From contig CAYIEN010000001.1 in the NCBI GenBank assembly GCA_964362535.1, forward strand, positions 16,271 through 80,270: a stretch of DNA of 64,000 nt, read 5' to 3'. Both the position numbers and the translations under genes were made by a program. Below, piece after piece: positions 12,832 to 64,000 of the stretch; positions within the stretch are counted from its first letter, which is position 1; each line of letters begins with the position of its first letter. This DNA is from an uncultured Methanosarcinales archaeon. GTDB lineage: Archaea; Nanobdellota; Nanobdellia; Woesearchaeales; ARS49. The notes beneath the pieces are model-generated. The model saw nothing but the letters and a program-made list of their open reading frames with translations, was not told the DNA's origin and made no database searches.

Positions 12832-12835
12832 CGTT

Positions 12836-24174: not shown

Positions 24175-24175
24175 C

Positions 24176-30911: not shown

Positions 30912-31951
30912 AAGGACAATTCGAAGTACAATTCAACTGGGTATTCGTTCTGATCGCCGGCGCGGTTATTCTCGCATTCTTCTTCAGCATCGTCCTCAAA
31001 CAACGAGCCATCAGCGAACAACGCCTTGAATTGACACTCGCAGGCGAACTTGATGCAATAACGACCAGTGCAAGCGTCGCAAAAGGAGCAGCACAACGAA
31101 TCTCATTGCCCAAAGCAGGACTTGACTTTACTTGCTCCGATGAATGCTCGTGCACCTTCAGCGTCGGCTCTGTCACCAAAGATTATCGCGATAAACTTAT
31201 TTTTGCACCCAGCCACATTGAGGGAGATACCGTTGTCTTTTGGAGTCTTGATTGGCAAATCCCTTTCCGAGCAACAAATTTGCTGTTTGTCACCAATGAC
31301 CGCATCAAATACTTCTTTGTCCACGACGACAGCGCAGAGTCAGAACAACTCGTCGGCAAAGTCAAAGCATTACTACCCGAACAAGCCAATTCCGCATTTG
31401 TCACACTATCAGATGTCGATTGCAGGACAAACCCCAACTGCATCAAAAATGAAAACTACATCCGCGTTAAATTCGTTTTCCTGAATACTGACCCAGCATT
31501 TGGCGATTTACAACTTGATGATTCATTTAGTGATACGGAACTCGCGGCTGTTCACATTACTCCTGACGCCTTAACTTTCTTTAAGCGTGATAGCAAAACC
31601 GCAACCACATTCACTCCTGCATCCGCATACTACGCAGGCGACGCAACACTTTTCGCAGCAATTTTTTCCGCAGACGAACCCATGTACCGATGCAACATAC
31701 AAGCAGCATCACGACGACTCGGATACGTTGCACGCATTATTCAAAGCAGAATGGAAACCTTCCGCGCAGATGCAGCAATCATTGAACGAGGATGCGCATA
31801 CAACCCCGAAACTATCGCCCGCGTCGCGACCGTCGGCGACGAACAAGGCACATCACTTTCTTCCGGACTTACCGAATTACGCGGATTATCTCTGACACTC
31901 AACGACGAAAATGAAGCATTGCTCCGCCAAAGTTGCCCCACACTTTACTAA
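30908..31951 (+). CDS. Class III signal-peptide (pilin-like) protein, 347 aa
   Basis: MKGQ-FEVQFNWVFVLIAGAVILAFFF. Confidence 0.65.
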   Translation: MKGQFEVQFNWVFVLIAGAVILAFFFSIVLKQRAISEQRLELTLAGELDAITTSASVAKGAAQRISLPKAGLDFTCSDECSCTFSVGSVTKDYRDKLIFAPSHIEGDTVVFWSLDWQIPFRATNLLFVTNDRIKYFFVHDDSAESEQLVGKVKALLPEQANSAFVTLSDVDCRTNPNCIKNENYIRVKFVFLNTDPAFGDLQLDDSFSDTELAAVHITPDALTFFKRDSKTATTFTPASAYYAGDATLFAAIFSADEPMYRCNIQAASRRLGYVARIIQSRMETFRADAAIIERGCAYNPETIARVATVGDEQGTSLSSGLTELRGLSLTLNDENEALLRQSCPTLY

Positions 31952-31952
31952 C

Positions 31953-32438
31953 ATGAACACCTTACAAAAGAGAGCGCAAGTCAAAATGTTCGAAACACTC
32001 GCTGTACTGGTCGTGTTCTTTTTCTTCCTCATATTCGGCGCAAGCTTTTACTTCAAACTTCAGGAAAATGCCTTACATCGCGACCTTGACAAAAATACTC
32101 AGATACGGGCGGTACAAATTGCGCAAAAATCCGTACACTTGCCCGAACTCGATTGTTCATTCGTTGGTGTGCAGCGCGAAAACTGCATTGATTTTGACAA
32201 AATTACGGCGTTAACAGCACTCTTAATGTCAAGTGATGCTGCAAAAATAGAATATTTCAAATCATTTGAATATAGCACACTTCGATTCCACCAAGTCTAC
32301 CCTGAATCCGTGGACTACACTATTTACGATCGCAAACAAGGAGACAGTACAACGGCGTTGCAATTGCCCGTCGTTGTCTACCACGCCATCGACGGCAGTT
32401 ACGGCTTTGGGTATTTAGAGGTACTCGTGTATGCGTAA
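31953..32438 (+). CDS. Class III signal-peptide (pilin-like) protein, 161 aa
   Basis: MNTLQKRAQ-VKMFETLAVLVVFFFFLIFG. ATG 31953 lies 1 nt after the upstream stop; the track ORF starts at 31911 inside the previous gene. Confidence 0.6.
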   Translation: MNTLQKRAQVKMFETLAVLVVFFFFLIFGASFYFKLQENALHRDLDKNTQIRAVQIAQKSVHLPELDCSFVGVQRENCIDFDKITALTALLMSSDAAKIEYFKSFEYSTLRFHQVYPESVDYTIYDRKQGDSTTALQLPVVVYHAIDGSYGFGYLEVLVYA

Positions 32439-32898
32439 AGGACAAATGGAAATTTTAGGATTGGCGGTTATCGTTGTACTCATTATGCTTGGCGTTCTTT
32501 TCGCCGTGTTCTTTGTTTTGCGCGCGCCCGCATCCAACATCGCCCAAACCTACAAAGAATCACAACTTGCGTCAAGTTTGCTCACCACTATGTTGGCTAC
32601 GACGACACCTTGTCGGGGCGCGACCGTTACTGAACTTTTGCAAGACTGCGCATCAGCCGGACAACTCACCTGCCCCTACGGCACATCCTGCGATGAAGCC
32701 TCAAACGCTATCGGCACCATGCTTGAAGGAACACTCGGAGTTTGGAAACGCAGCTATCAATTCAGCATTACGGGCGCGTCAAACACTGAAGCAATCACGT
32801 TTGCTTCTGGCGACTGTACTGGCGAACGCGAAAGCCACACAAATCCTATTCCAACCGCTTCTGGAGCGCTCCAAGTCACGCTCAACCTTTGCGCGTGA
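32431..32898 (+). CDS. Class III signal-peptide (pilin-like) protein, 155 aa
   Basis: MRKGQ-MEILGLAVIVVLIMLGVLFAVFF. The start overlaps the upstream gene by 8 nt. Confidence 0.65.
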   Translation: MRKGQMEILGLAVIVVLIMLGVLFAVFFVLRAPASNIAQTYKESQLASSLLTTMLATTTPCRGATVTELLQDCASAGQLTCPYGTSCDEASNAIGTMLEGTLGVWKRSYQFSITGASNTEAITFASGDCTGERESHTNPIPTASGALQVTLNLCA

Positions 32899-32951: not shown

Positions 32952-33443
32952 ATGGATTTTACCAAAAGAGATTTGATGATACTCAGTTGTTTGCGCGCAG
33001 ACGGACGTTGCAAACTCGCCCAAGTCAGCAGAACAACAAACGTCCCCATCAGCACCCTCTTCGAACGATTACGCGCCTATAAAGGAACAGTATTGGCCAA
33101 AACAACAAGCCTGCTTAATTTTAACGAAATCGGTTTTGCTACTCGAGCACACCTCCTTATCCGCTGTCAACGACAACGCGAAGAAGTTAAACAAAAACTT
33201 CTGGAATATGCAAACGTCAATTCGCTGTACCGCGTCAACAACGGCTACGACTACCTTGCAGAATGCGTCTTTCGCACCCTGCAGGATGCCGAAATATTCT
33301 CAGAACAGTTACGAACCACATTTGACGCTATTGTTCGCGTCCAATACATATTAGCAGACCTCAAACGCGAAACATTCCTCTCCGATCCCAATCTCGTTCA
33401 TCATGTCTACCCCACAAGACATTCCTCAGGACAACCTTTTTAA
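32952..33443 (+). CDS. Lrp/AsnC-family transcriptional regulator
   Basis: The HTH DLMILSCLRADGRCKLAQVSRTTNVPISTLFERL is followed by an alpha-beta (RAM-like) domain. The start is set at MDFTKRD. Confidence 0.55.
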   Translation: MDFTKRDLMILSCLRADGRCKLAQVSRTTNVPISTLFERLRAYKGTVLAKTTSLLNFNEIGFATRAHLLIRCQRQREEVKQKLLEYANVNSLYRVNNGYDYLAECVFRTLQDAEIFSEQLRTTFDAIVRVQYILADLKRETFLSDPNLVHHVYPTRHSSGQPF

Positions 33444-39475: not shown

Positions 39476-40000
39476 TTATCCTGTGCCGTGAAAATGTCCC
39501 TTATTTCTTTTCCACTTCAGAATAAAATGGGGCAAAATGAATCCGCACACATACATGATGCTGACCACCCACGGATTGTGCGTTGGCAAACCAACGCCAA
39601 CCGCGAATTTATTGCTCAATTGCACAATCATGTAAATATTGATTAAAGCAATTGCGGGAATAAACAGTTCAGGAATAATCAAGTGCGCTCGGCGCAAATG
39701 TTCGATTTCTCTGATGACGACATCCATCAATGTGCCGAACGCAACCGCGAGAACCGCAACCGTGACAACTAAAGACAAATCATCAAACGCTAACAAAATA
39801 GGAATAAACACAAGACTCAAAATAAAATTGCCGATGATGGCAGACAAAAGAATGCCCCAGTAGACGACTTCATCCAAGAACTTAATCGCGTCGCTCTTGA
39901 CTGCGTTTGCCGACTGCAGAATTGCAGCAGCCTTATTGACTTGGTGCGGTTGCCAGCCCTGCGCAGCCATTGAACTACGTATTTCTTGAACGGTTGCCAT
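39476..40000 (-). CDS. Small polytopic membrane protein (4 TM), last gene of the MinD-type operon
   Basis: 174 aa with a ~40-aa cytoplasmic N-terminus and four hydrophobic helices. Its start overlaps the MinD-like stop (TAATG). Confidence 0.55.
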   Translation of the reverse strand: MATVQEIRSSMAAQGWQPHQVNKAAAILQSANAVKSDAIKFLDEVVYWGILLSAIIGNFILSLVFIPILLAFDDLSLVVTVAVLAVAFGTLMDVVIREIEHLRRAHLIIPELFIPAIALINIYMIVQLSNKFAVGVGLPTHNPWVVSIMYVCGFILPHFILKWKRNKGHFHGTG

Positions 40001-40704
40001 TAGTTAATCCACAACGCAGCAAGCTTCTTCATTGCTTGCGACGCTTTACAATCAGGATGACTATACGTAAACGGGTGACGAACAGCTTGGGCTTCGCTGA
40101 CATGCGCATCATTCGGAATGCTCGCCAGCACCGGAACTTCAAGAAGTGCTTGAATGTTTGAAGCGGCGATTTCATGCGAGTGCTGACCAATTCGGTTGAT
40201 GATGACCCCTTTGACTGGCGTTTTGAGTGCTTGACAACGCTTGATAAGTTTCAACGCATCAATAATTGCGGGTAATTCTGGAGTCGTCACAACAACAACT
40301 TCGTCCGCAATGGCTAATGCAGCAAGCGTTTCCTGAGAAATACCTGACGCGCAATCCAGAACAATCTGCGGCGATAACGATGCGACCAACGAAGGAATCT
40401 TCAGCAAATCTCGTTGTTTGCCTTGCGTCGCGTGCTTCAGCGCAAGAAGTCCCGGAATAACTTTCAACCCACTCGGCGCGTGATGATACACCGCGTCATT
40501 CAACTTCGTCGGATCGTCAAGAGCGTCCTGCAAACCAACAGGAACATTCGGCGTACCGAGATGTATTCCCACGTTCGGCAAGGACATATGTGCGTCGATC
40601 AATGTTGTATCAAGCCCGTGCTCAACAAAACTTGCCCCTAAAGAAATCGCGAGCGTCGTAACGCCTGTGCCGCCCTTCCCTGACGCGATTGCGAGAATGC
40701 TCAT
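40000..40704 (-). CDS. MinD/ParA-family P-loop ATPase (archaeal MinD-like)
   Basis: Deviant Walker A motif ASGKGGTGVTT in a 234-aa protein. Confidence 0.8.
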   Translation of the reverse strand: MSILAIASGKGGTGVTTLAISLGASFVEHGLDTTLIDAHMSLPNVGIHLGTPNVPVGLQDALDDPTKLNDAVYHHAPSGLKVIPGLLALKHATQGKQRDLLKIPSLVASLSPQIVLDCASGISQETLAALAIADEVVVVTTPELPAIIDALKLIKRCQALKTPVKGVIINRIGQHSHEIAASNIQALLEVPVLASIPNDAHVSEAQAVRHPFTYSHPDCKASQAMKKLAALWIN

Positions 40705-43897: not shown

Positions 43898-45379
43898 ATG
43901 AACAAATGGCTCGGAGTCATCATCGCCTGCGTCGTGATTATCTTACGCCTTGCCACTACGCACAACGAAGGCCTGACTGTTGAGTCATACGCTCACGTTA
44001 ACCAAGCAGTCCACATTCAAGCAACGGGATTCCCCTTACTTACCTACACTCTCAGCGGAACTACCACTCGCGCACTGTTCTCGCCCGTTTACGACTATCT
44101 TTTAGCTATCACTGGTTCGATTTTTGGCAACACCCACGCAATTCATCTCATCGGCGCGTTCATCGCAGGACTTCTTGTGTTGGGCGTTTTCACATTCATT
44201 TTGCATTCCACAAAAAATTCAACGGCAGCAGTCCTCGCAAGTCTCGCCGCAGCCCTCATCCCTATCGGCTGGTCTGATATACTCACCGCGTCCAGTGCAA
44301 ACCTCGGCATTCTCATCGGACTCTGGATACTCATTTGTTTTTTGCATATTGACAATAACATTTGGCGCATCTTTTTTCTCATTCTCCTTGTCTTAGGAGT
44401 GCTTACGAGTTCAGTCATCCTGCTTTTTCTCCTCGGACTCGTCGCATACCTCGCCCTCGCAGAAATGGCGCGCATCAACCGACCGCACGGCGAACACGAA
44501 TTTGTCTTTTTCGGACTCTTATTCCTCCTCTGGGTCTACATCGTCCTTTACAAAGACGTCTTTGTCTTACACGGCTGGCAAGCAATCTGGCAAAATACAC
44601 CAACACTTTTCCGCAACTCTTATTTTTCAGACCTGCACACCCTTGACGTCATCGTCTCCATAGGCATATTCCCGTTCATCGGAGGCATGTACGTCATGTA
44701 TCGCCATCTTTTTGTCGAACACGAACGACCTGTGTATCTTATCATGAGCCTCGTGCTTTCAACGGGCATCCTCACATGGGCACAAATTGTTACTCCCACT
44801 ATCGGACTCCGTGTGCTCAGTATTGGACTTGTGGTACTGTTCGGCTTTGCCGCACGCGACATTTTACACTACCTCCGAACAACCAAACTCGGACTCTTAC
44901 GACACGGCGTTCCATTGGTTGCAGTATTGCTTTTGCTCGTCAGCAGCATTCCCGCAACTGACGAAGTGCACGACGCAAAAACAAACACCGTAACTCCCGA
45001 TGAACTCGCAGCAATGCACTGGATCCGAGAAAACACCCCCGAACACGCAGTCATCGCAGCATCCTGGACTGAAGGAATACTCCTTTCCAGCCAAACAGGA
45101 CGCACACCCATCATGAACGACCAGTTTTTACTCCAACCCGAAAGCACCACTCGCATTGAAGACATCCACACCATTCTTGCCGCACCATTCCAGTCTGACG
45201 TCATTGATGCACTCAACAAATACCACGCAGACTTTGTTCTGTGGACCGAGGTCAGCCGCGCCATCACTGGTAGAGACAGCCCTATTTTTGCAACAGACCT
45301 CATCTGTTTCACCCCCCTCTTCACAAAAGGAAGCGTTATCGTTTACGGAATTGCCTGCGGACTCGAGCGTGATGCCTGA
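43898..45379 (+). CDS. Polytopic GT-C-like membrane glycosyltransferase (PMT/ArnT-like)
   Basis: At least 10 predicted TM helices followed by a ~130-aa soluble C-terminal domain. No WWDYG-type STT3 motif was seen. Confidence 0.45.
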   Translation: MNKWLGVIIACVVIILRLATTHNEGLTVESYAHVNQAVHIQATGFPLLTYTLSGTTTRALFSPVYDYLLAITGSIFGNTHAIHLIGAFIAGLLVLGVFTFILHSTKNSTAAVLASLAAALIPIGWSDILTASSANLGILIGLWILICFLHIDNNIWRIFFLILLVLGVLTSSVILLFLLGLVAYLALAEMARINRPHGEHEFVFFGLLFLLWVYIVLYKDVFVLHGWQAIWQNTPTLFRNSYFSDLHTLDVIVSIGIFPFIGGMYVMYRHLFVEHERPVYLIMSLVLSTGILTWAQIVTPTIGLRVLSIGLVVLFGFAARDILHYLRTTKLGLLRHGVPLVAVLLLLVSSIPATDEVHDAKTNTVTPDELAAMHWIRENTPEHAVIAASWTEGILLSSQTGRTPIMNDQFLLQPESTTRIEDIHTILAAPFQSDVIDALNKYHADFVLWTEVSRAITGRDSPIFATDLICFTPLFTKGSVIVYGIACGLERDA

Positions 45380-46500
45380 TGTGGTGGGTTATCACGGCAA
45401 TCATTCTCGGACTCCTCCCATTTATCATCCGATGGGTCATAGGAAACCCACTCCTGCCAGGAACAGAAACATACCTCTTCGCCAACTGGCTCCACCAACT
45501 CGGATTCTCCTCGACACTTTCCATCAGTATCATACTCGTTACTACTCTATCCATTCTCGCAGGAGTAATTGCAAGTCTCCCTCGCTTCTTCCGAACAAAC
45601 AAATCGTTATGGCAGGTAAGCGACGCAACTCGATTACTGCTCCTTCTTTCACCAAGTTGGATTGCCAGCGCAACTGTCTTTCCCTCTCACGCATTTTTGT
45701 TGGGCATTCTTACTGGCTCGCTTGTTCTTTGGAAAAAAAATAAATTATTCGGAGCAGCACTCTTCGCCATATTTCTGGCAGGAGTATCACTCCTCTTTTG
45801 TCTCCCTTCCGCACCCGCAGGCATCATCGAATTCGGCGTCCTCAACGGATACGGCCTTTTTGGATTGATTGTCGCATTTTTGGGCGGCTGCGTTTTGTGG
45901 GAAAACAAAGCAAAAACCTATTTTATCGCACTCGGAATAGCAGCCCTCATCATTCTTTCATTTTTTATTCCCGAACTCGTCGTCATTGGCGCAACAGCAG
46001 TCGCAATCATTGGAGGAATAGGAGTTGTGCGACTTTTGCACAGAAAATGGGCATTTCCACTCCTTCGCGGACCAAGCATCCTCCTCTGCGCATGCGGATT
46101 GCTCTTTTCAACACTTGCCTGCATTTCGCTTATCAGCCACGTTGGACCCGATGGCGGAACTGCTTCCGACCTTGCCGCATTACAATCAGCCATTCCTGAT
46201 GGACTTGTCCTGACAGAACTTTCACCTGAATGGGTCACGTGGTGGGGTCACGCAAACACCATCACCATGCCCGAAACAATCCGCACAGAAATTTGGCAGT
46301 CACGCAACATCTACCGCACCCGAGACATACTCGAAGCCTGGAATGTTACCACCATACTTATCACCCCTGAAATGAAAGCATCACTTTGGAATGACCACGA
46401 AGATGGACTGCTCTTCCTCCTGCACCAGAGCAAAACATTTAAAAGTCTAGGACAGGGAAAATTCGTCGAAGCATGGGTCTACGACCCCCCGCAACAATGA
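45379..46500 (+). CDS. Polytopic membrane protein, GT-C-like, related in layout to 43898..45379
   Basis: Multi-TM N-terminal region and a soluble C-terminal domain. Its start overlaps the upstream stop by 1 nt. Confidence 0.4.
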   Translation: MWWVITAIILGLLPFIIRWVIGNPLLPGTETYLFANWLHQLGFSSTLSISIILVTTLSILAGVIASLPRFFRTNKSLWQVSDATRLLLLLSPSWIASATVFPSHAFLLGILTGSLVLWKKNKLFGAALFAIFLAGVSLLFCLPSAPAGIIEFGVLNGYGLFGLIVAFLGGCVLWENKAKTYFIALGIAALIILSFFIPELVVIGATAVAIIGGIGVVRLLHRKWAFPLLRGPSILLCACGLLFSTLACISLISHVGPDGGTASDLAALQSAIPDGLVLTELSPEWVTWWGHANTITMPETIRTEIWQSRNIYRTRDILEAWNVTTILITPEMKASLWNDHEDGLLFLLHQSKTFKSLGQGKFVEAWVYDPPQQ

Positions 46501-47750
46501 TACCGCTCCAACAAATCATCCTCTGGATTGCCGCCGCCATTTCCACCTACTTCGCAATTTTTTGGTTCCTTGTCCTTATCGACGTTCCTTCAGAAGTACG
46601 CCGCAAAAAATGGACAACCTGGCCAACACTCACTGTTGCCATCCCTGCATGGAACGAAGAAGACTGCATCCGAGACACCATGGAAAGCGTTCTTGCGGCG
46701 GATTATCCCTCTTCCAAACTGCAACTCATCGTTGTTGACAATGCAAGTAAAGATAATACCTCCATAATTGCGAAACAAGTCATGGCCGAACATCCTTCCC
46801 GCAACATCAAACTCATCTATGAATCACGACCGGGCAAAGGAATTGCGGTCAACAACGCGCTCGCGCAAGCCACCGGCACATTTTTCGCCACCATGGACTC
46901 GGACAGTCGCGTTTTTCCCGACGCGCCCAAAAAACTTCTTTCCTATTTTACTGCGAATAAGATAGCTGCCGTCGTACCCGCAATGAAAGTCCGCGAACCA
47001 AAAACATTTTTGCAAAAACTCCAATGGTACGAATACAACGTAAACATGTTCTACAAAGACCTCATGGGACGCGTTGACGCGTTGCACGTCATTCCCGGTC
47101 CATTTCCCGTCTATCGCACAAACGTTCTCCGCACCATAGGAGGATTCGCCGAACAAGGCAACCTCACCGAAGACCTCGAAATTACTTTGCGTTTACAGCG
47201 AGAACAATACAAAATCGTCCAATCCATGGACGCATTTGTCGACACCATTACACCATCCACCTGGAAAGCATTTTACCTGCAACGCAACCGCTGGTTCAAA
47301 GGCGCATTCCTCAACGCATTCGCCTACCGCAAACTCGCATTCAACAACAAATATGGCGACTTCGGCATGATACAAATGCCCACACTCCTCATATCAGGTT
47401 TACTTGCGCTTGTCCTCATTGGAATAACCGTTTATTCAGCATTTCCTCCGTTTATGCAAGCGTTTCAGAATCTTCTTAACATACGATTTGACCTTTGGAC
47501 ATTGCTTACGAATTTATCTTGGAACCTGTCCGTTTTTGATTTAGACTTTATGACTCTCACGTTAACCGCCTGCATGCTTGGCATCAGCATTTACATCTTC
47601 ATCCAAGCCCACCGTGTCGTCAAAGAACCTCTACTGCAACAGGGATGGTTTAGCTTTGCGTTCTTCATGCTTGTTTATTATTTACTGCTTGGCGTTGTCT
47701 GGGCAGGCGTCGCCCGTGATTTGGTGCTTGGCAAGCACCAGAGGTGGTAA
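46497..47750 (+). CDS. Processive family-2 glycosyltransferase (cellulose/chitin/hyaluronan-synthase-like)
   Basis: AIPAWNEE, DNASKDNT, MDSDS, TEDLE and QRNRW (the QxxRW motif), with TM helices at both ends. ATGA overlap with the upstream gene. Confidence 0.75.
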   Translation: MIPLQQIILWIAAAISTYFAIFWFLVLIDVPSEVRRKKWTTWPTLTVAIPAWNEEDCIRDTMESVLAADYPSSKLQLIVVDNASKDNTSIIAKQVMAEHPSRNIKLIYESRPGKGIAVNNALAQATGTFFATMDSDSRVFPDAPKKLLSYFTANKIAAVVPAMKVREPKTFLQKLQWYEYNVNMFYKDLMGRVDALHVIPGPFPVYRTNVLRTIGGFAEQGNLTEDLEITLRLQREQYKIVQSMDAFVDTITPSTWKAFYLQRNRWFKGAFLNAFAYRKLAFNNKYGDFGMIQMPTLLISGLLALVLIGITVYSAFPPFMQAFQNLLNIRFDLWTLLTNLSWNLSVFDLDFMTLTLTACMLGISIYIFIQAHRVVKEPLLQQGWFSFAFFMLVYYLLLGVVWAGVARDLVLGKHQRW

Positions 47751-47751
47751 C

Positions 47752-48438
47752 ATGCGAGATTATAGAAAGACACGTTACCTTTTTGCAGGTCTTATCACCA
47801 TCGCCATCTTCGCGCTCGGACTCATGCTCGGATTTGTTGTCGAAGGCAAACGAGTCACCACCGTCCAAACACTCTTTGATACCCAACGCACCGAATTTGC
47901 AAGCTCACAACTACAATACTCTTACGTCTCTTCGCTGAATTCGCAAGAAGCCTGCCCCGCAATCTACACCATTTTTTTCAACAACATCAAAAACCTCGAT
48001 GAAACAGCGCACAGATTGGAAAGTTACGTTAAAGACAGCAAACTCAACGACGAAAATTTTGCCGTCCTCAAACGAGAATACACCATCGAACAATTACGTT
48101 ATTGGTTATTGAGTAAGCAAGCCCGCGATCTCTGCAACCAAGACGTCGTGCGCGTTTTGTACTTCTTTTCCACCGACGACCAATGCACGACTTGTACTGA
48201 ACAAGCATTTGTTCTTGACTATTTGAAAAAATCGTTCGGCGAACGACTCCTTATCTTTTCCCTCGATGCAACCTTCGAACAAGAACCCATGATTGGTATC
48301 CTCAAACAACAGTATAACATCACAGCCTACCCCACACTCATCATCGAAAACACACCATTTTCTGGCTTTTCTTCCCGCGAAGACCTGCAAGCCAACATTT
48401 GCTCGCTCTACCGCGACCCACCCGAAGCATGCGTATAA
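47752..48438 (+). CDS. Membrane-anchored thioredoxin-fold protein with CxxC motif
   Basis: N-terminal TM helix YLFAGLITIAIFALGLMLGFVV, then VLYFFSTDDQCTTCTEQAFVLDYLKK...YNITAYPTLII, which has the thioredoxin-like active-site layout. Confidence 0.55.
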   Translation: MRDYRKTRYLFAGLITIAIFALGLMLGFVVEGKRVTTVQTLFDTQRTEFASSQLQYSYVSSLNSQEACPAIYTIFFNNIKNLDETAHRLESYVKDSKLNDENFAVLKREYTIEQLRYWLLSKQARDLCNQDVVRVLYFFSTDDQCTTCTEQAFVLDYLKKSFGERLLIFSLDATFEQEPMIGILKQQYNITAYPTLIIENTPFSGFSSREDLQANICSLYRDPPEACV

Positions 48439-57338: not shown

Positions 57339-57545
57339 ATGCTTATGAACGATTCTAACTCTTATTCATGCATGAGCATTGTGATTCCTTTGACGTTAGA
57401 AGTGCTTGGAGATACTCCGACCGGCATGAGTGTTATTGACTCCAGTCCTGTGCCTTTGAAATGGATTCTTTTGGTTACTGTGGGCATTGCACTCGTTGTG
57501 TTCATCTGGCGCAAGCGAGATAGTTTTATATATCACCAAACCTGA
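57339..57545 (+). CDS. Possible small membrane protein (68 aa)
   Basis: The single C-terminal TM helix WILLVTVGIALVVFIW is the only support. Confidence 0.25.
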   Translation: MLMNDSNSYSCMSIVIPLTLEVLGDTPTGMSVIDSSPVPLKWILLVTVGIALVVFIWRKRDSFIYHQT

Positions 57546-57571
57546 AACTTTACCATTCAAAGAGGTGTTTT

Positions 57572-57820
57572 ATGCGAGCGCAAGGAATCTCAATCAATGT
57601 CATCGTTGTCGCGGCAATCGCGCTACTCGTTTTAGTCGTATTGTCCGTTGTGTTCTTGGGCCGCTTCGGCGTCTTCACCGCACAATCAGCTGACTGTTCG
57701 AACAAAGGCGGTTCCTGTACCACGGGTGCGTGTCCTACTGGAACCTCAGAATATTCTGCCTGGAATTGTGCTGACACTGCAGGCGGCGCACGACAAGCAT
57801 GCTGTATCGCGGTGCAATAA
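57572..57820 (+). CDS. Small six-Cys pilin-like protein 1 (82 aa)
   Basis: MRAQ-GISINVIVVAAIALLVLVVLSVVFLGRFGVF followed by C-x6-C-x4-C-x11-C-x10-CC. AGAGGTG lies upstream of the ATG. Confidence 0.7.
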   Translation: MRAQGISINVIVVAAIALLVLVVLSVVFLGRFGVFTAQSADCSNKGGSCTTGACPTGTSEYSAWNCADTAGGARQACCIAVQ

Positions 57821-57821
57821 C

Positions 57822-58079
57822 ATGCATACGCGTGGACAAAGTATGTCTATTAACGTCATCGTTATTACCGCGATAGCTTTGATTGTACTGATTGTTCTCG
57901 TTGTTGTATTGACTGGCCGCGTTCAGATATTCGGCAAAGGACTCGGCACGTGTAGAGGCACTTGCATGACCTCGCCTGCCTCTTGCACCGGTTCTGCGAT
58001 TCCAACACCGCACTGCGACGACGGCGGCAAAACGGCAGTCATCCCTGGCGACGGCTATTGTTGCGTCGCTACATCATGA
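57822..58079 (+). CDS. Small six-Cys pilin-like protein 2 (85 aa)
   Basis: MHTRGQ-SMSINVIVITAIALIVLIVLVVVLTGRVQIF followed by C-x3-C-x6-C-x9-C-x14-CC. It starts 1 nt after the previous stop. Confidence 0.7.
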   Translation: MHTRGQSMSINVIVITAIALIVLIVLVVVLTGRVQIFGKGLGTCRGTCMTSPASCTGSAIPTPHCDDGGKTAVIPGDGYCCVATS

Positions 58080-58336
58080 CACGCGGCGAAATGTCCATTG
58101 GGATAGTAGTTGCTCTGGCTCTCGGACTGATAATTCTCTTGATTCTGTTAGGCGTCGTGGTTAGTCGTGTCGGCATCTTCGGTAAAAGTAGCGAGAATGT
58201 CGCCGCCGACGCAAACGCAGGACTCTGTTTTGGCAAAGGACAATGCATCGCAAAAGAACTTCCCTGCACAACACCCGTTTCAGGCATGCCCATCAGCGGC
58301 TGGACTGACTGTTCCGGCACCTGCTGCAAACCATAA
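58076..58336 (+). CDS. Small six-Cys pilin-like protein 3 (86 aa)
   Basis: MTRGE-MSIGIVVALALGLIILLILLGVVVSRVGIF followed by C-x5-C-x6-C-x14-C-x3-CC. ATGA overlap. Confidence 0.7.
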   Translation: MTRGEMSIGIVVALALGLIILLILLGVVVSRVGIFGKSSENVAADANAGLCFGKGQCIAKELPCTTPVSGMPISGWTDCSGTCCKP

Positions 58337-58367
58337 GTATTTATAGCAAATTCTGATAGGTTTACTC

Positions 58368-58484
58368 ATGAAAAGAGGGCAGGCAACAGAACACCTGGTG
58401 AATATACTGCTTCCACTCATCTTTTTTTTAGGGCTCCTTGCACTCGTTGCCTACATCATTTTCTCGCATAGAGGTGCTCCTTGA
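58368..58484 (+). CDS. Mini-pilin-like peptide (38 aa), absent from the ORF track
   Basis: My translation is MKRGQATEHLVNILLPLIFFLGLLALVAYIIFSHRGAP. ATTTATAG is centred ~26 nt upstream of the ATG. Its stop overlaps the next start (TTGA). Confidence 0.45.
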   Translation: MKRGQATEHLVNILLPLIFFLGLLALVAYIIFSHRGAP

Positions 58485-59212
58485 AAGGCATGGCCGAAGC
58501 GGCGCTTGTAGCGGTTATCTTAGCGGTGGCTGCAGGCTTAATTATTGGAGGCGTTGCTGTTTCTTTTGTTGCGAACTCAAAAAATGTAATTAACAAAGAA
58601 GCGTGTCGAGCGAACGTGTTTGCAGCAGCCAAAGACCCAACCAGAACATTTCAAGTCAATCAATGTTATACCAAAGAAGCAGGCACTTTATCAAAATCAG
58701 ACGACCCCGATAACGTCATTTTGAAAAACGTTGCAGATTTAGTGCAAGAATGCAAGTATCAGTTTGATGACGGTTCTCCTGACAGTATGCCTTGGAGCAG
58801 AGATTTTGCAACAGAGTCTCGCATTTGTTTTGTTTGTTCCACATTTCAACCACAACGGGCCGTTGTGAAAACAGCACTTGCCACCTGGATGGAAAATAAT
58901 GTTCTCGGTGCGAAATCATATATGGAATATGTGAAGCCAAGTTTATTCCTTACTGATCCAAACGCATTATTTTTGAGCGCAGACAGAAAATCAGAAACAG
59001 TATCAGCATTACCTTATCTTTACCCCGAAATACCCTACTCCGTTATTAGCATTACACATTCGGATTCAACACTAAGTTATGCCGTCGGTAAAACTGATAT
59101 GTTCATAGGAACAAGCGATAAATCAGATGCTCGTGACTATACTCATATCTCCATAATGAAAAGTTCTGAACTTGGAGAGTTCTGCGACATCACTTTCTTG
59201 AGGTATCCGTAA
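58481..59212 (+). CDS. Class III signal-peptide (pilin-like) protein, 243 aa
   Basis: The TTG start gives MKG-MAEAALVAVILAVAAGLIIGGVAV. The Cys-containing globular domain is paralogous to 59213..59821. Confidence 0.6.
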   Translation: MKGMAEAALVAVILAVAAGLIIGGVAVSFVANSKNVINKEACRANVFAAAKDPTRTFQVNQCYTKEAGTLSKSDDPDNVILKNVADLVQECKYQFDDGSPDSMPWSRDFATESRICFVCSTFQPQRAVVKTALATWMENNVLGAKSYMEYVKPSLFLTDPNALFLSADRKSETVSALPYLYPEIPYSVISITHSDSTLSYAVGKTDMFIGTSDKSDARDYTHISIMKSSELGEFCDITFLRYP

Positions 59213-59821
59213 ATGGAAAAAATGATTGTAGAAATCGCGCTGATGCTCTCCATTATTGTTGTTTTCGCGTTTGTTGGACCAATTCTTGTTGAAAAAGGAA
59301 AAGCATACTTTGATGGCCAAGACTGCCAAACAAGCATTGACCGTGCAATACAGTTGCACCAAGCCGCAACCGTCTTCAGTAGCAAAATCACGTGTCCCAC
59401 CCAAGAATATTCTTTTGCAGGAACTGATGACCAAATAAAAGCATCTGTTGCCGATGCACTTGAAAAATGCTGGTCACGATGGCACGAAGGAACTACATCT
59501 GCGTTTTCCGGCGATGGCGTGTTTTGCGATGTCTGCGCTCGCTTTGCCGCTTCAGGAAACAAAAAAATAACGGGCATGCATCAATACCTTCGAGATACAC
59601 CTGCTAAAAAAGGCGGATCACTTTACGATTATTTGTCCACTCCTGCTGGTGAAATAAAAACGGCAGTTCCCGATACATTTACAACAGATAAGCAGCAAGC
59701 CGTTGTTTTCACCTATCTGCAATACGTTGATTCAGGCGTATCAGGCGCAGGAGTCCGTTTTTCACGTCATGATGAAGGTTGGAGTACAAGTTGCACCGCA
59801 TACCCGATCAGCCAACAATAA
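59213..59821 (+). CDS. N-terminally anchored protein (202 aa), paralog of 58481..59212
   Basis: MEKMIVEIALMLSIIVVFAFVGPILV. It shares the C(K/W)...(I/F)C.VC..F pattern with the upstream gene and abuts the upstream stop. Confidence 0.6.
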   Translation: MEKMIVEIALMLSIIVVFAFVGPILVEKGKAYFDGQDCQTSIDRAIQLHQAATVFSSKITCPTQEYSFAGTDDQIKASVADALEKCWSRWHEGTTSAFSGDGVFCDVCARFAASGNKKITGMHQYLRDTPAKKGGSLYDYLSTPAGEIKTAVPDTFTTDKQQAVVFTYLQYVDSGVSGAGVRFSRHDEGWSTSCTAYPISQQ

Positions 59822-59873
59822 GCATTCATTTTCCAACCATAGAGTTTATAAATAAAAAGGAGCATAAAACAGC

Positions 59874-60008
59874 ATGAACAAAAGAGGGATGGATTTTAAC
59901 CAGCTGATGATGCTCGTGCTCGCTTTGGTTGCACTTGTTGTTGGCATTCTGCTTTTGACCGGCTGGGGCAAAGATATCATGATGTCCATCGGAGGAGTCT
60001 TCGGATGA
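59874..60008 (+). CDS. Mini-pilin-like peptide (44 aa), absent from the ORF track
   Basis: My translation is MNKRGMDFNQLMMLVLALVALVVGILLLTGWGKDIMMSIGGVFG. TTTATAAA is centred ~26 nt upstream of the ATG. ATGA overlap with the next gene. Confidence 0.45.
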   Translation: MNKRGMDFNQLMMLVLALVALVVGILLLTGWGKDIMMSIGGVFG

Positions 60009-60253
60009 AAGGAGCCTCTTTCTTAATGCAAATGGTCGTCTTCGCGGTTATTGCGCTTGTCGGAGCGTCAGTTTACATTCTTGTCATTCATCCGCGCATC
60101 TTTCAAGCAGCGGACTTAGTCAAAGCATCATGCGAAAAAAATCAGGCAATCACCGAATCCTGTATCTGCTTCGGTAGTCGAGTTGACGCGCGTAGTCCGC
60201 CGCTCTATTGTTGCTCAAATGGCATCAAAGTAAACCCCTGCGTGACCCCATGA
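60005..60253 (+). CDS. Small six-Cys pilin-like protein 4 (82 aa, divergent Cys spacing)
   Basis: MKG-ASFLMQMVVFAVIALVGASVYILV with six Cys, including a CC pair. Confidence 0.6.
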   Translation: MKGASFLMQMVVFAVIALVGASVYILVIHPRIFQAADLVKASCEKNQAITESCICFGSRVDARSPPLYCCSNGIKVNPCVTP

Positions 60254-60486
60254 AACGAGGAATGGAAACAATACAACTTGTTGTAAGTTTAGTCATTGGT
60301 TTAGTTGTTCTTCTCTTAGTTATTGGTATCATTTCAGGCAAACTCGGCGGATTCGCAAAAGCAACCACGTGCACCGGACAAGGAAGTACCTGCATCGCGC
60401 GCACCGAAGAATGCCCAGAAAATACCTTAGCTCCCATTAGCACATCAGACTGCCAAGGAACAAACCATTGCTGTCTCGCACGGTGA
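60250..60486 (+). CDS. Small six-Cys pilin-like protein 5 (78 aa)
   Basis: MKRGM-ETIQLVVSLVIGLVVLLLVIGIISGKLGGF followed by C-x6-C-x6-C-x12-C-x5-CC. ATGA overlap. Confidence 0.7.
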   Translation: MKRGMETIQLVVSLVIGLVVLLLVIGIISGKLGGFAKATTCTGQGSTCIARTEECPENTLAPISTSDCQGTNHCCLAR

Positions 60487-60491
60487 ACAAC

Positions 60492-60941
60492 ATGAACAAA
60501 AGAGGAATGAGTCTCGGACTTGAATTAACAGTTGTAGCCATCGCAGCGCTCGTTGTCGTCGCAATCTACTTCATCATCATCGGCAACACCAGCTCAAGTT
60601 TTCAGTCAGGCATTAGCCAAGTCATACCAAACGCAATGGAATTACAAGTCAAGCGTTGCACGGATTTACAAATTACTACAGCGATACCAGACACGGACAA
60701 AGACGGCCTTGCCGACATTTGCGACCTGTGCATTTCACCAAGCACTGCAGATACAGATGGCGACTACATGCCTGATGTTTGCGACAGACACATCGACTCA
60801 AAAACACGCGAACACGTACCTGACACGTCACCCGTTACTGCCTGTTGCGGAAAAGGCAAATCAACCTGTGATGACATCCTGCGCAATGGCCGCAACTTCC
60901 AATGCAGTTCAACCGAACCAACTCCCGTGCCTGTAAAATGA
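60492..60941 (+). CDS. Class III signal-peptide protein with thrombospondin-type-3-like Ca-binding repeats (149 aa)
   Basis: MNKRGM-SLGLELTVVAIAALVVVAIYFIIIG, then DTDKDGLADICDLC and DTDGDYMPDVCD. Confidence 0.65.
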   Translation: MNKRGMSLGLELTVVAIAALVVVAIYFIIIGNTSSSFQSGISQVIPNAMELQVKRCTDLQITTAIPDTDKDGLADICDLCISPSTADTDGDYMPDVCDRHIDSKTREHVPDTSPVTACCGKGKSTCDDILRNGRNFQCSSTEPTPVPVK

Positions 60942-62245
60942 GCCGCGGACAATCCATCGTCGCAATGCCGTTATCGGAATTGCTTAGCATCATTCTTGTC
61001 GCCGTGCTTGTTATCGGTATAGGAATCTTTCTTGTTCGCGCGGTTTTTGTTAGCAATTCCAACGCCGAGACAGCATCCGTTTATAGTATGGTTTCCCTCG
61101 CGCACAGCATCAAAACATTAACAAGCAACCCACTTCCTTTTCAGCGTTCTTCAACAACAGTCTACATCGATTCAGGTATGGTTCTTGTAGGCTTTCCCCC
61201 CGGAAAACAAGGAGTGTCATATAATATTGAAGAATGGAATGCGGATGTTGTAACGGTAACACCTACCTATTTAGGAACGCCTGAGCTCTGCGGTAATACT
61301 GCTTGCTTATGTCTATTTTCTTCACTTGCCGAAAAACCTGTTTCTTGCGTGAATATGCAAGGCATTGGAAATTTTGTGACTTTTTCAAATACGGTAAATT
61401 CTGAACTCGGAGGGTTGTACAAGCCTCAGGTTAAAGAATTGGCAGAAACAACTTTCCAAGGCACGTGCTACCCCTATTCAAAGGATGCCTTCAAAAAAGT
61501 TCCTCCCCTGTACCCACTTGATTCAACAAAAGGTTGCGGATACACTCAAAAAGAACCAGCAAATCAATACGCCTCACTTGTTATTTTTAGTAACGGCAAT
61601 TTTAAAACACAAACGCTTGAAATTGAAAAGTCCATTCTTGCAGGCGAAACAAACATTCTCGTTTCTTTGCCATTATCTCCAATAATTATCGGTTTCCGCG
61701 ATAGCGCATTCCTAGACTATGCTCAAACGGATCTGCTAAAACTAGGGGATGATTCCTTTGCTCAAAAAGACTTTACTACTGCAATCAATCTGTATTCAGA
61801 ATACCTTGCAGTTGCAGAAACAAACCACTGGGACGACCAGGTAAAAATACCCATCTTTGAAAAAGTTTATTTCGCGCATGATGGCAACGCACGCGATGAA
61901 AAAGCAAATAGTGCTAGTAGAATAGAATCACTTCAATATGTTCTTGCAAACTATGAACAACTTATTGTTCGATTGCCCGCTTACAACTATGCAAACACCG
62001 AACTCGCCGTCCTGTGCGTAAAAAGCGTTCCAGGAGATACTGCATGTGCAGGTGTTCCTAAATTGTCCGCAACATTTAATGCGGTTGAAAATGGCGTCTG
62101 CGATGGTGTTGTCGAGCTCGAACGCTGCACAGCAGACCCGAAAACAAAACTTGCCTGCGTCAACAACGTGTGGACAAAAGCACCGTGCGGTTACGACTGC
62201 CAAAACAGCTATACTTCTGACGGCAAGTTGCAGGTGCTCTGTTGA
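60938..62245 (+). CDS. Class III signal-peptide (pilin-like) protein, 435 aa
   Basis: MSRGQ-SIVAMPLSELLSIILVAVLVIGIGIFLV with a Cys-rich C-terminus. ATGA overlap. Confidence 0.65.
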   Translation: MSRGQSIVAMPLSELLSIILVAVLVIGIGIFLVRAVFVSNSNAETASVYSMVSLAHSIKTLTSNPLPFQRSSTTVYIDSGMVLVGFPPGKQGVSYNIEEWNADVVTVTPTYLGTPELCGNTACLCLFSSLAEKPVSCVNMQGIGNFVTFSNTVNSELGGLYKPQVKELAETTFQGTCYPYSKDAFKKVPPLYPLDSTKGCGYTQKEPANQYASLVIFSNGNFKTQTLEIEKSILAGETNILVSLPLSPIIIGFRDSAFLDYAQTDLLKLGDDSFAQKDFTTAINLYSEYLAVAETNHWDDQVKIPIFEKVYFAHDGNARDEKANSASRIESLQYVLANYEQLIVRLPAYNYANTELAVLCVKSVPGDTACAGVPKLSATFNAVENGVCDGVVELERCTADPKTKLACVNNVWTKAPCGYDCQNSYTSDGKLQVLC

Positions 62246-63054
62246 ACCGACGCGGACAACAGCAGATGGTGTTGTTTGTGATAATGGAAATTGTTCTGGT
62301 GATTATAGCGACGACAGGCATGTTTGCTTTAGTTAATCGCGCGTCAACCAATTACACTCCTGAAAAAAATTATGCCGCCCGGGATTTAGCATTAACGCAC
62401 GACGCTATTGAAACAACAACTAACATTTATTACGAATTCTACGGTCCTGTTTTGAGCTATCTTCCGAAATCTAATCTAGGATTTACTAATGACGCTGCTC
62501 AAGTTGACGAGTTTACCAGTCCTATTTTACGCAACCTATTCCTTGCCGAACTCCCAACGTATTCTCCCATTGATAGAGTGCCTTTACAAACAGCAGCACG
62601 CGAATTTTCAAACGGTGCTTCAGTAAGAACTGCCAGCAAAGACAACGCCGTACCTTGTGCAGCAATCTCGTTCCATCCTGCGACTATTGCACTTATTCCC
62701 GTCACTGAAGCCAGCGTCGCATTCACCAACCTCATTGCGTCGACGGACAAACGCTTTATCCCCTCTACCGAAGAAAGAAAAGCACTCATTACTGATAACG
62801 GTCTCGCGCTTGCATCTTCAGCAAAAGCAGATCTGACAGTGTATGTCTTTGTCGCAGATACTCCTGGAATCAAAGTGTACGGAAGCAATGATGGTTATCT
62901 TGGCTGCAACATTGTCAATGCAGTGCTCGGCACGCAAAAAGTCGATGCAGCATACGTGCCATCCTTTGAAGACAAACCCTTACTCACCATAGGCATTAAT
63001 GCAGCGCTCACCATTCCAGCCAACGCCGACGCTGTCCGCAAGGTGCTCTCATGA
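62242..63054 (+). CDS. Class III signal-peptide (pilin-like) protein, 270 aa
   Basis: The TTG start gives MNRRGQ-QQMVLFVIMEIVLVIIATTGMFALV. TTGA overlap. Confidence 0.6.
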   Translation: MNRRGQQQMVLFVIMEIVLVIIATTGMFALVNRASTNYTPEKNYAARDLALTHDAIETTTNIYYEFYGPVLSYLPKSNLGFTNDAAQVDEFTSPILRNLFLAELPTYSPIDRVPLQTAAREFSNGASVRTASKDNAVPCAAISFHPATIALIPVTEASVAFTNLIASTDKRFIPSTEERKALITDNGLALASSAKADLTVYVFVADTPGIKVYGSNDGYLGCNIVNAVLGTQKVDAAYVPSFEDKPLLTIGINAALTIPANADAVRKVLS

Positions 63055-63539
63055 GAGGCCAAGTCTCCACCGGATACATGCTCTCCTGGATTATTTTCAC
63101 AGGAGCCATGCTCATTATTATTTTCGGAAGCTTACTTTTTTGGCTTGATGCAAAGTTAACCATTCATGCGGATACATTCCCCGCAGAAGCAGGACTGTAC
63201 GCCGATAGAGTGCTCTTTTCCAGCGATGGACTCGCTGCAGTAGATATCACTGGACGAACCCTCCCTGGCATCATTGACGCGAAAAAGTTATCAGACCCAC
63301 TTATCAGCGACCAGCTCAAACAAACCGCATCCGGCAAAGGCTTCGCCGCAAAAATACAAATAGGTGATGCCACAATCTATTCGGACGAAAAAAGATATGA
63401 TGCACTCATCCCCCAAACTGGCGGAACCGGTCCGGGTTCAACACAACAGCAAGCATTTACCTTTATGGTTTTGAAGAGAGAAGGAGAAAAAGACACGCCG
63501 GTCCTTGCCACTATTAACGTCGTCGGAGCTGCATCATGA
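63051..63539 (+). CDS. Class III signal-peptide (pilin-like) protein, 162 aa
   Basis: MRGQ-VSTGYMLSWIIFTGAMLIIIFGSLLF. ATGA overlap. Confidence 0.6.
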   Translation: MRGQVSTGYMLSWIIFTGAMLIIIFGSLLFWLDAKLTIHADTFPAEAGLYADRVLFSSDGLAAVDITGRTLPGIIDAKKLSDPLISDQLKQTASGKGFAAKIQIGDATIYSDEKRYDALIPQTGGTGPGSTQQQAFTFMVLKREGEKDTPVLATINVVGAAS

Positions 63540-64000
63540 GAGGACAACTCACGGGACGACTTTTGGTTATTATCTTCTCATGGGTAGGACTCATCGCCAT
63601 ACTTTTGCTCGGAATATTATTTTCTTACCTTTCAGGTCATCCCGCAACACCCACCGCAAGCGGAGTTACTTTGCCGTTTATGCAAACCACAATCCACTCA
63701 TATTTGTATCAAACCGTTGATGCAGGTTATGGAAACAACATTCCCTTTGCCGAATACATTGTTGGAGAATATCTGCAAGGCCGCACCGCGAATGTCGAAA
63801 CACAAACCAACACCTTCTTGTCAAAACTACCCGCAACAAAAGAAAAAGCCATCTTCATTTTTGTCGATAACGCAGTATTAAACGCAGACAAGCAAGGAGG
63901 AATCTTTTCCTGGCTGCATGTTGGATCAAACGCTTTCTTCACTCCTGAACAAACAGCCACCGCGTCATTTTCACTCCCTGACGGCCGCACTATCCGTGTA
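63536..64000 (+). CDS. Class III signal-peptide (pilin-like) protein, 3' end cut by the window edge; absent from the ORF track
   Basis: My translation is MRGQ-LTGRLLVIIFSWVGLIAILLLGILFSYLSGHPATP... It stays open for 155 codons to nt 64000. ATGA overlap with the upstream gene. Confidence 0.55.
   Translation, partial: MRGQLTGRLLVIIFSWVGLIAILLLGILFSYLSGHPATPTASGVTLPFMQTTIHSYLYQTVDAGYGNNIPFAEYIVGEYLQGRTANVETQTNTFLSKLPATKEKAIFIFVDNAVLNADKQGGIFSWLHVGSNAFFTPEQTATASFSLPDGRTIRV

Follow-up and report, generated by a model that had tools for sequence, protein, structure and literature searches.

The window, meaning the whole stretch of 64,000 nucleotides of archaeal DNA analysed here, ends in a block of 14 genes (g1 to g14) that runs on the + strand from position 57572 to the window edge. 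The encoded proteins measure 38 to 435 amino acids (aa), and 13 of the 14 begin alike. Met and at most three further residues are followed by Lys/Arg-Gly (Arg-Ala in g1), giving a leader of 3-5 residues, and after this [KR][GA] pair come 3-8 mostly polar residues and a strongly hydrophobic stretch of ~20 residues. Only g6 lacks the basic leader motif in the window. Under a relaxed rule for class III (prepilin-type) signals ([KR][GA] in the first 12 residues and an 18-residue window of mean Kyte-Doolittle hydropathy ≥1.8 starting within 9 residues), 13 of 14 block genes qualify as against 6 of the 53 other window genes, these six being one lipoprotein signal (MKRGVFSILALLAVLLVLVGC) and five other pilin-like genes. 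A chance origin of the signature in the block is excluded. Its products probably serve as structural subunits of a type IV filament (TFF), either a pilus or a short pseudopilus, processed and assembled in trans. An earlier note on this DNA had given gene positions from 57572 on and the N-termini, a class III-like start on every gene but that at 59213 (g6), eight 4-nt overlaps and sizes of 38-435 aa, and open reading frame (ORF) listing and translation reproduce all of these.

The genes are tightly packed. Eight junctions (g2/3, g4/5, g7/8, g8/9, g10/11, g11/12, g12/13 and g13/14) are 4-nt ATGA/TTGA overlaps, g1/g2, g5/g6 and g9/g10 are separated by 0-5 nt, and larger gaps occur solely ahead of g4 and g7. 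TATA-like boxes lie on the + strand ~40 nt 5' of g1 (TTTATATA, 57525-57532), ~25 nt 5' of g4 (TATTTATAG, 58338-58346) and ~25 nt 5' of g7 (TTTATAAATA, 59845-59854). A Shine-Dalgarno-like site on the same strand (AAGAGGTG, AAGAGG; 57560-57567) precedes g1, and an AGGAG site (59858-59862, +) lies between the g7 box and g7. As the organism is archaeal, the boxes were aligned across genomes and no sigma-70 scanner was used. The g1 box keeps its distance in the related genomes L009, L003, L011 and L012, the g4 box keeps its position in all five genomes compared, and the g7 box is kept in L009, L003 and L011 and absent in L012. Because these positions are retained in four to five genomes, the comparison supports a split into three putative transcription units (g1-3, g4-6 and g7-15), proposed earlier as three sub-operons, with the boxes as their putative promoters. 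A 68-aa ORF with a C-terminal hydrophobic segment (57339-57545) lies just 5' of g1; its 3' end contains the g1 TATA-like box, and it is a candidate gene.

The first three genes encode small proteins with six Cys each. In g1 (57572-57820, 82 aa), a candidate major subunit, the leader MRA is followed by the mature sequence QGISINVIVVAAIALLVLVVLSVVFLGR and then by a 45-aa six-Cys head. Its paralog g2 (57822-58079, 85 aa; leader MHTRG) is 75% identical to the L003 ortholog, and g3 (58076-58336, 86 aa; leader MTRG), of the small six-Cys family that includes g1, g2 and g9, has orthologs in L003, L011 and L012 and is absent from L009. The 38-aa g4 (58368-58484) is a headless mini-pilin-like protein, consisting of the leader MKRG and one hydrophobic helix. 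It is followed by the six-Cys paralogs g5 (58481-59212, 243 aa; TTG start, leader MKG) and g6 (59213-59821, 202 aa). A second headless mini-pilin-like protein, g7 (59874-60008, 44 aa; leader MNKRG), has orthologs of 43-45 aa in all four related genomes. Next come g8 (60005-60253, 82 aa; leader MKG), which has six Cys and is weakly related to the g1/g9 family, and g9 (60250-60486, 78 aa; leader MKRG), a small six-Cys protein of that family. Eight Cys and two Asp-rich thrombospondin-type-3-like motifs (DTDKDGLADICD and DTDGDYMPDVCD) are found in g10 (60492-60941, 149 aa; leader MNKRG). The largest protein, g11 (60938-62245, 435 aa; leader MSRG), is modular, with an N-terminal module (~1-160) containing four conserved Cys, a TPR-like region (~248-362) and a Cys-rich C-terminal domain. 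The remaining genes are g12 (62242-63054, 270 aa; TTG start, leader MNRRG), g13 (63051-63539, 162 aa; leader MRG, no Cys) and g14 (63536-64000; leader MRG), which is cut by the window edge and measures 162 aa at full length on the near-identical contig L001. A pilin-like g15 is expected just past the edge; its orthologs begin MKRG/Y or KRG/FFIFEP (the slash marks the junction).

Two of these genes depend on unusual start codons. The TTG starts of g5 and g12 are backed by orthologs, which keep M[KR]G followed by [MIV]AE[AT] in the first case and MNRR[GA] followed by QQ in the second. On L001, the automatic gene caller shortened the two proteins to 240 and 256 aa, cutting off their leaders, and a g4-equivalent ORF of 35-37 aa is present yet uncalled in L009 (~10610), L011 (~3952) and L012 (10856). 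As an ORF of 35-38 aa thus recurs in three related genomes, g4 is taken to be a real gene. Standard annotation under-reports the signature, because TTG leaders are truncated and the tiny g4 is missed.

Conservation of the block and its surroundings

The same block is found gene for gene on at least six other archaeal contigs. It comprises 13-15 genes in these relatives, the last of which is always the pilin-like g15 of 268-322 aa, so that the window stops ~1.5 genes short of the block end. The count of "at least 14 genes" given earlier therefore stands for the window, but the block is not open-ended: relatives have 15 genes, beyond which lie genes for an RPA-like protein, YdjM and RadA. On a 25.7-kb NCBI contig reached via a g11 relative (L003; GCA_964360075.1, CAYHVU010000005.1), the order is identical and the proteins measure 81, 83, 95, 35, 283, 261, 45, 80, 76, 135, 465, 286, 170, 154 and 291 aa. 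All 14 window genes have an in-register ortholog there with 27-81% identity, whereas the two genomes share 90% identity in ribosomal protein S2; the block proteins thus evolve fast. The most conserved is g1, with 81-89% identity between genomes. Six contexts of g1 homologs (among L009-L016) contain the same block on contigs of 39-50% GC, and the block is a conserved module. Its interpretation as a genomic island acquired by horizontal transfer is ruled out, since its GC fraction (0.445-0.469) lies within that of the rest of the window (0.445-0.534, mostly 0.45-0.50) and the block is vertically conserved while its flanks are rearranged.

The housekeeping genes of the window are archaeal (RFC, proteasome-activating AAA ATPase, FEN1, PheRS, PCNA, eRF1-like and gyrase A), and g1 homologs come from sources named "Candidatus Woesearchaeota archaeon" and "Nanoarchaeota archaeon". 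The organism is therefore in all likelihood a Woesearchaeota-type DPANN archaeon. Identical block proteins occur on contigs named Hain_H43_01um, a name that suggests the 0.1-um filter fraction of groundwater. The title of the L003 record, "uncultured Methanosarcinales archaeon", is likely a taxonomic mislabel, as the genes found there and their homologs fit an archaeon of the same DPANN type.

A partner cluster of pilin-like and giant proteins, missed in the earlier note, lies at 21601-32898 on the + strand. In its first part (21601-30432), 857-aa and 1671-aa proteins with Sec signals flank a 414-aa pilin-like protein (24176-25420, MRG/QLTLL), and none of the three has a Pfam match. The second part consists of pilin-like genes at 30429-30911 (MNRG/Q), 30908-31951 (MKG/Q), ~31953-32438 (MNTLQKRA/Q) and 32431-32898 (MRKG/Q), which are 59-74% identical to L003 genes situated just 5' of the L003 block. 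Directly 3' of the cluster is a gene for an AsnC/Lrp-type regulator (32952-33443, +; 48% identical to L003_5766). In relatives this regulator is found immediately 5' of g1, and its equivalents in L010-L014 match PF01037 (AsnC_trans_reg).

In four relatives (L003, L010, L012 and L014), equivalents of the partner cluster lie just upstream of the block. In the spacer between them, L010 and L012 carry a gene for a Ser/Thr kinase, and L003 and L014 one for an unannotated protein of 582-628 aa; a minus-strand gene for a 274-305-aa protein (weak MazE/PhoU matches in L012) and the AsnC regulator complete it. In L015 and L016, the cluster abuts the block directly. Equivalents of the giants, 1676-4782 aa long and with matches to CarboxypepD_reg, Big_13 and TSP3_bac, lie upstream of the block in L010, L012, L014, L015 and L016. 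Rearrangement in the lineage of the window and L009 has put ~24 kb between the partner cluster and an intact block. Since the two adjoin in most relatives, the functional unit is one of ~20 pilin-like genes plus giant adhesin-like proteins.

The 3' flank is also recurrent. All six loci with a downstream flank (L003, L009, L010, L011, L012 and L013) have a gene for an RPA-like OB-fold protein after the block. The full order of RPA-like gene, YdjM-family membrane hydrolase (~150 aa), small gene and RadA is seen in L003 (14146-18103) and L009 (17302-20242), while L010 and L011 have YdjM and no RadA within the fetched flank, and L012 and L013 have RadA and no YdjM. A gene for a single-stranded DNA-binding protein so placed, with RadA following, usually past YdjM and one or two small genes, would suit a filament that serves mainly in DNA uptake, as a competence-type pilus, and not as an adhesin. 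DPANN archaea are, moreover, thought to depend on external nucleotides. However, RPA and RadA are housekeeping proteins whose place beside the block may simply have been inherited, neither a ComEC-like channel nor a DNA-binding domain is seen, and the partner cluster encodes adhesin-like giants, all of which makes DNA uptake a most improbable main function. YdjM, which adjoins a pilin block devoid of a peptidase, is a polytopic membrane hydrolase.

The [KR][GA] junction

The junction was followed through an ortholog table of 15 families in five genomes (the window, L009, L003, L011 and L012; 72 proteins). A short positive leader ending in Gly or Ala and followed by a hydrophobic stretch of ~20 residues or more, as defines TFF pilins, is present in 69 of the 72 orthologs, as in 13 of the 14 window genes, and the [KR][GA] pair itself is kept in the same number of orthologs. 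The leaders range from 3 to 20 residues (e.g., MRG and MVVFEVAERQQANIFSKKA in g13). The residue at +1 is variable (Q, M, E, I, V, G, D, A, S, F, Y, L or T), although Gln occupies it in 7 of the 13 window genes and is near-invariant in the g1 family. The junction that the earlier note expected to be conserved is thus retained at its basic and small residues, but not as Q, M or E at +1. The 76 g1 homologs have different leaders (MRA, MKKA, up to MARRARKRGRKRA), while from Q+1 onward the alignment reads QGISINVI(I/V)VAAIALLVLVVLS(V)(V/I)FLGR, invariant or >90% conserved over ~30 residues. The combination of a variable leader, fixed residues at -2 and -1, and conservation from +1 agrees with a filament-core helix that is preceded by a class III signal peptide. 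The N-termini behave as the prepilin-type signals that they were first taken for, and the leaders would be cleaved at this site.

Alternatively, these N-termini could be ordinary uncleaved signal anchors of type II membrane proteins, in which Lys and Arg satisfy the positive-inside rule and [KR][GA] has no role in processing. Such anchors would agree with the finding of no peptidase in the window and the flanks of related loci, with the lack of matches to any curated class III or pilin model, and with a g6 that works in the window lineage without the motif. They would not explain why Gly or Ala is held at -1 after Lys/Arg despite such variable leaders, or why conservation in the g1 family begins exactly at +1. 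In addition, the Sec and lipoprotein signals of the window look different, with MKK running straight into the hydrophobic core and no conserved Gly/Ala. Uncleaved anchors are therefore quite improbable.

The leader is nevertheless missing from a few proteins. That of g6 is absent in the window and its closest relative L009 and present in L003 (MRG/Q), L011 (MSRG/M) and L012 (MKRA/Q), and that of g8 has been lost in L009 (12225-12479). The hydrophobic helix is kept in the leaderless forms of both. As these leaders were lost in single lineages with the helix retained, their cleavage seems dispensable for some subunits.

Subunit anatomy and the g1 head

Profile-profile comparison unites g1, g2, g3 and g9, and less strongly g8, in one family of ~80 residues built of a helix and a six-Cys head ending in CC. 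The hhalign probabilities are 99.1% for g1-g2 over full length, 98.0% for g3-g9, 97.7% for g2-g3 and 97.0% for g1-g9. The g5-g6 pair (97.7%) shares six Cys per protein and a CxxC motif, whereas g4 and g7 are essentially helix alone. Outside g1/2/3/9 and g5/6, the families are alike just in the first ~30 residues, as in pilins. From g1 to g15 the Cys counts are 6, 6, 6, 0, 6, 6, 0, 6, 6, 8, 14-16, 2, 0, 0 and 4; they are even and mostly conserved between genomes, as expected of extracellular disulfides.

The g1 family has 76 homologs, with six conserved Cys and a near-invariant mature N-terminus. The AlphaFold model of g1, built from the alignment of these sequences (pLDDT 82), shows a helix of 34 residues (6-39) and a three-strand head. 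This minimal lollipop resembles short type IV pilins and has the long N-terminal helix and beta head by which TFF subunits are recognised. The expectation of a pilin-like structure is therefore borne out by g1; the g11 model, made from four sequences, reaches a pLDDT of only 55. By its fold and conservation, g1 is the likely major subunit.

The g1 head (57695-57817) recurrently resembles a beta-defensin. Its top Foldseek matches are beta-defensins; the match to human beta-defensin-1 has an E of 0.47, a probability of 0.82, a target TM-score of 0.66 and an identity of 30%. Against Pfam Defensin_beta (PF00711), g1 scores 15.9 bits, below the cut-off of 21, and 38 of the 76 homologs match at E ≤0.1 (best 3e-5). 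The Cys spacing C-x6-C-x4-C-x11-C-x10-CC, found in 37 of 75 homologs, compares with C-x6-C-x4-C-x9-C-x6-CC in the beta-defensin framework, where the disulfides pair C1-C5, C2-C4 and C3-C6 over a three-strand sheet. When the g1 family was aligned by hhalign to eight beta-defensins, all six Cys aligned (P 8e-4, probability 24.5%), and a reversed control gave nothing. The reverse search of the g1-family profile against Protein Data Bank (PDB) sequences returned no defensin. The resemblance is unproven, as no line is individually significant and small Cys frameworks converge easily. A GGxCxxxxCP motif is also carried by the head.

Among the larger subunits, g10 shows a weak match to Pfam TSP_3 (E 0.16), and a match to NCBIfam throspo3_MtsC (E 9e-4), obtained for a single protein in a set of 20, presumably belongs to g10 too; the protein may bind calcium. 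Full-length relatives of g11 are few, with three found by a word-indexed search and six at E <1e-70 by an exhaustive profile search. The profile search also collects 140 representatives at E ≤1e-3 that share the N-terminal ~160 residues alone, namely the leader, the helix and a four-Cys domain with the motif VGF...C...ACLCLY...C. Their C-terminal parts vary and include TPR and, as in P0024, P0043 and P0055, NlpC/P60 (E 6e-16), peptidase M23 (E 1.5e-7) or Amidase_5 domains, and one distant member matches Pfam Pilin_N (E 2.8e-4). The gene at the g12 position in L016 (15695-16768) has a weak Amidase_3 match. Hydrolase-type domains carried on the g11-family module are possibly wall hydrolases. The low-confidence g11 model has a helix (13-62), strands (69-148), a better-predicted TPR-like region and a small beta-rich end, and gives weak TPR matches alone in Foldseek. 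The g11 family thus combines, as modular pilins do, a pilin-like module with a separate functional module, although a true pilin fold of its N-terminal part is unproven.

Sequons for N-glycosylation are depleted in the block proteins, with 2 observed and 11.8 expected (none of 2000 shuffles was as low), whereas the Sec-dependent giants are enriched (39 in two proteins). The depletion extends to L009, L003 and L011 but not to the more distant L012. The clade seems to have purged sequons from its subunits.

Taken together, the disulfide-rich heads and the modular family allow a bolder proposal for the block and its partner cluster. They would form a host-contact filament of episymbiotic Woesearchaeota, with a shaft of mini-pilins bearing true beta-defensin-type (trans-defensin) heads and a large exchangeable minor-pilin tip, including the modular family with cell-wall hydrolases in relatives, that attaches to the host envelope and breaches it. 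Bacterial defensins reported so far are cis-defensins (PMC11561630), and no report of a trans-defensin fold in prokaryotes was found in the literature. The proposal as a whole is doubtful. Were the g1 head defensin-like, or the modular subunits a means of delivering hydrolases, the locus would bear on the origin of the defensin fold and on host breaching by episymbionts; should neither hold, it is still a clean case of pilin repertoire expansion apart from assembly machinery.

Filament assembly and known systems

The preferred interpretation remains a type IV filament whose subunits are processed and assembled by machinery encoded elsewhere. Each preprotein, with its short basic leader ending in Gly or Ala, would insert into the membrane through the hydrophobic N-terminal helix and be cut after the Gly/Ala by a prepilin peptidase, the enzyme that acts on class III signals. 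Through its helix, the subunit would then be built into a helical fibre by an ATPase of PilB/FlaI type and a platform of PilC/FlaJ/TadC type, whose genes would lie elsewhere in the genome. The shaft would be made of g1, an 80-residue subunit with an exceptionally conserved helix and a 45-residue three-disulfide head, perhaps with its paralogs g2 and g3. The headless g4 and g7 and ten larger, faster-evolving subunits could act as minor pilins that prime assembly and form a tip or decoration complex, including the calcium-binding-like g10 and the modular g11. The block would work with the 21601-32898 cluster, which contributes the giant adhesin-like proteins and five pilin-like genes. Attachment to surfaces or host cells is the probable role.

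Several results weigh against this interpretation. The earlier note had likened the N-terminal layout to that of the Pfam Class_IIIsignal family, but membership is not borne out: none of the 14 block proteins matches this family (PF04021, DUF361) even at E up to 1. No Pilin_N (PF07790) or NCBIfam pilin/archaellin match occurs among block or partner-cluster proteins, sequence and profile searches against solved structures give no pilin and only transmembrane-helix or chance matches, and Foldseek with the g1 model finds no pilin, matching the small head alone. Pfam scans of essentially all ORFs of at least 100 aa in the window reveal no T2SSE, T2SSF or Peptidase_A24, and precomputed Pfam lists show no ATPase, platform or A24 peptidase within 10 kb either side of the block in L003, L009, L010, L012, L014 and L016. 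Further, cleavage is apparently not obligatory for every subunit, given the leaderless g6 (window and L009) and g8 (L009), and the near-absence of sequons is unlike most characterised archaeal pilins, which are usually N-glycosylated.

The lack of linked machinery, as first noted for the 64 kb, is confirmed by a six-frame motif scan of the window, which finds no GxGD-K and no T2SSE-type Walker A. As none is linked in the window or in related loci, the separation of subunit genes from assembly genes is a constant feature. Such separation is known for archaeal pilins (PMC4858521; bioRxiv 10.64898/2026.04.22.720090, subsystem 4E and Epd system). The set is proposed to work in the manner of type IV pilins, and no membership in the Class_IIIsignal or Pilin_N families is claimed. 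In this form the original reading of the genes as pilus building blocks is partly supported, by the N-termini, the g1 fold and the conserved module, without the family membership; the absence of assembly genes nearby, also part of that reading, holds as well.

The same absence, however, is compatible with use of the class III route for export or anchoring alone, with the proteins forming a non-filamentous assembly such as a bindosome-like complex, a very short pseudopilus or an envelope layer. The number of different subunits (15-20) is far above the need of any characterised pilus, these are mostly globular and rich in Cys, none of the loci examined has a linked assembly ATPase, and the Sulfolobus bindosome offers a precedent for class III signals on non-pilus proteins (PMC4858521). 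Yet the near-invariant helix of g1 in 76 homologs is typical of filament-core packing and unneeded for a simple anchor, and headless proteins of 35-45 aa (g4 and g7) make little sense as displayed proteins. A non-filamentous assembly is accordingly unlikely, though less so than uncleaved anchors or DNA uptake.

Among known systems, the Epd pili of Methanococcus maripaludis (system 1; EpdA-E, EppA) resemble the block in their short basic Gly-ending leaders, often with Gln at +1, and in having several minor pilins and a major pilin of very small size whose gene lies at a distance from those for assembly, as proposed here. TFF system 1 has been reported in DPANN archaea (bioRxiv 10.64898/2026.04.22.720090; PMC3875500). 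However, Epd pilins are marked by Class_IIIsignal/DUF361, which the block proteins do not match, and no EppA is found in the window. The Epd operon also mixes machinery and pilins, whereas the block consists of 15 consecutive subunit genes with Cys-rich heads and no peptidase or ATPase seen in cis. Separation of machinery and pilin genes is shared with the Thermoproteal subsystem 4E (Pyrobaculum), in which pilin Cys are likewise conserved and presumed to form disulfides (PMC4858521; bioRxiv 10.64898/2026.04.22.720090), but this system belongs to another phylum and other protein families and has no more than one or two separate pilin genes where the block has 15.

Bacterial minor-pilin and pseudopilin operons (fimU-pilVWXY1E, gspGHIJK and comGC-GG) are similar in containing a run of pilin-like genes, graded in size, in which stop codons overlap the next start, and in combining one abundant small subunit with low-conservation subunits thought to prime or cap the fibre, an abundance that would have its counterpart in g1. 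There is no detectable sequence relationship. Bacterial leaders end G/F with Glu5, whereas the block proteins have [KR][GA]/x at this point, with an acidic residue anywhere from +1 to +11 or with none; unlike the block, these operons usually adjoin ATPase and platform genes. The g11 family recalls the modular pilins of Streptococcus sanguinis (PilB/PilC) and the adaptable-tip Tad pili of Myxococcus in its conserved N-terminal module with exchangeable C-terminal modules (PMC8179133, PMC12075869), although its module is archaeal-type and unrelated in sequence, and the window g11 carries a TPR-like region and a Cys-rich domain with no recognisable enzyme. The Sulfolobus bindosome also has class III signals on many surface proteins other than classical shaft subunits; these are sugar-binding proteins with recognisable domains and linked BasEF, and no such domains are seen in the block.

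Loci with many pilins, split loci and pilins that are modular or rich in Cys are already known singly, as are type IV filament genes in DPANN archaea. No report was found in the literature of a conserved run of 15 adjoining pilin-like genes (~20 counting the partner cluster) from families without a database match, of a near-invariant mini-pilin with a defensin-like disulfide head or of headless subunits, of sequon depletion, or of a modular subunit family with wall hydrolases in relatives. DPANN archaea such as Woesearchaeota are abundant, uncultivated and thought to live attached to other cells. The locus offers a conserved set of ~20 candidate contact genes, all unannotated and missed or truncated by gene callers and family databases, and thereby targets for cryo-tomography, metaproteomics and heterologous expression.

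Two multi-pass membrane proteins of the window, one of 642 aa (10936-12864) and one of 373 aa (45379-46500), were considered as a divergent platform or peptidase and not supported in that role, as neither has a Pfam match or a GxGD motif. The former lies in a third small cluster (10049-14017, minus strand) without Pfam matches, together with a 393-aa protein with a class III-like start (MLSRKG/QIKPP...) and a 296-aa lipoprotein. At 39476-40704 on the minus strand, the gene for a MinD/ParA-type ATPase (234 aa), distinct from the ATPases of type IV filaments, precedes one for a membrane protein of 174 aa; in some archaea, surface machinery is positioned by MinD-like proteins. Finally, an ORF among glycosyltransferase genes (47578-48438) has weak thioredoxin/TraF-like matches (E 0.002-0.02) and is possibly a thiol-disulfide oxidoreductase, which would bear on the many Cys-rich surface proteins encoded here.

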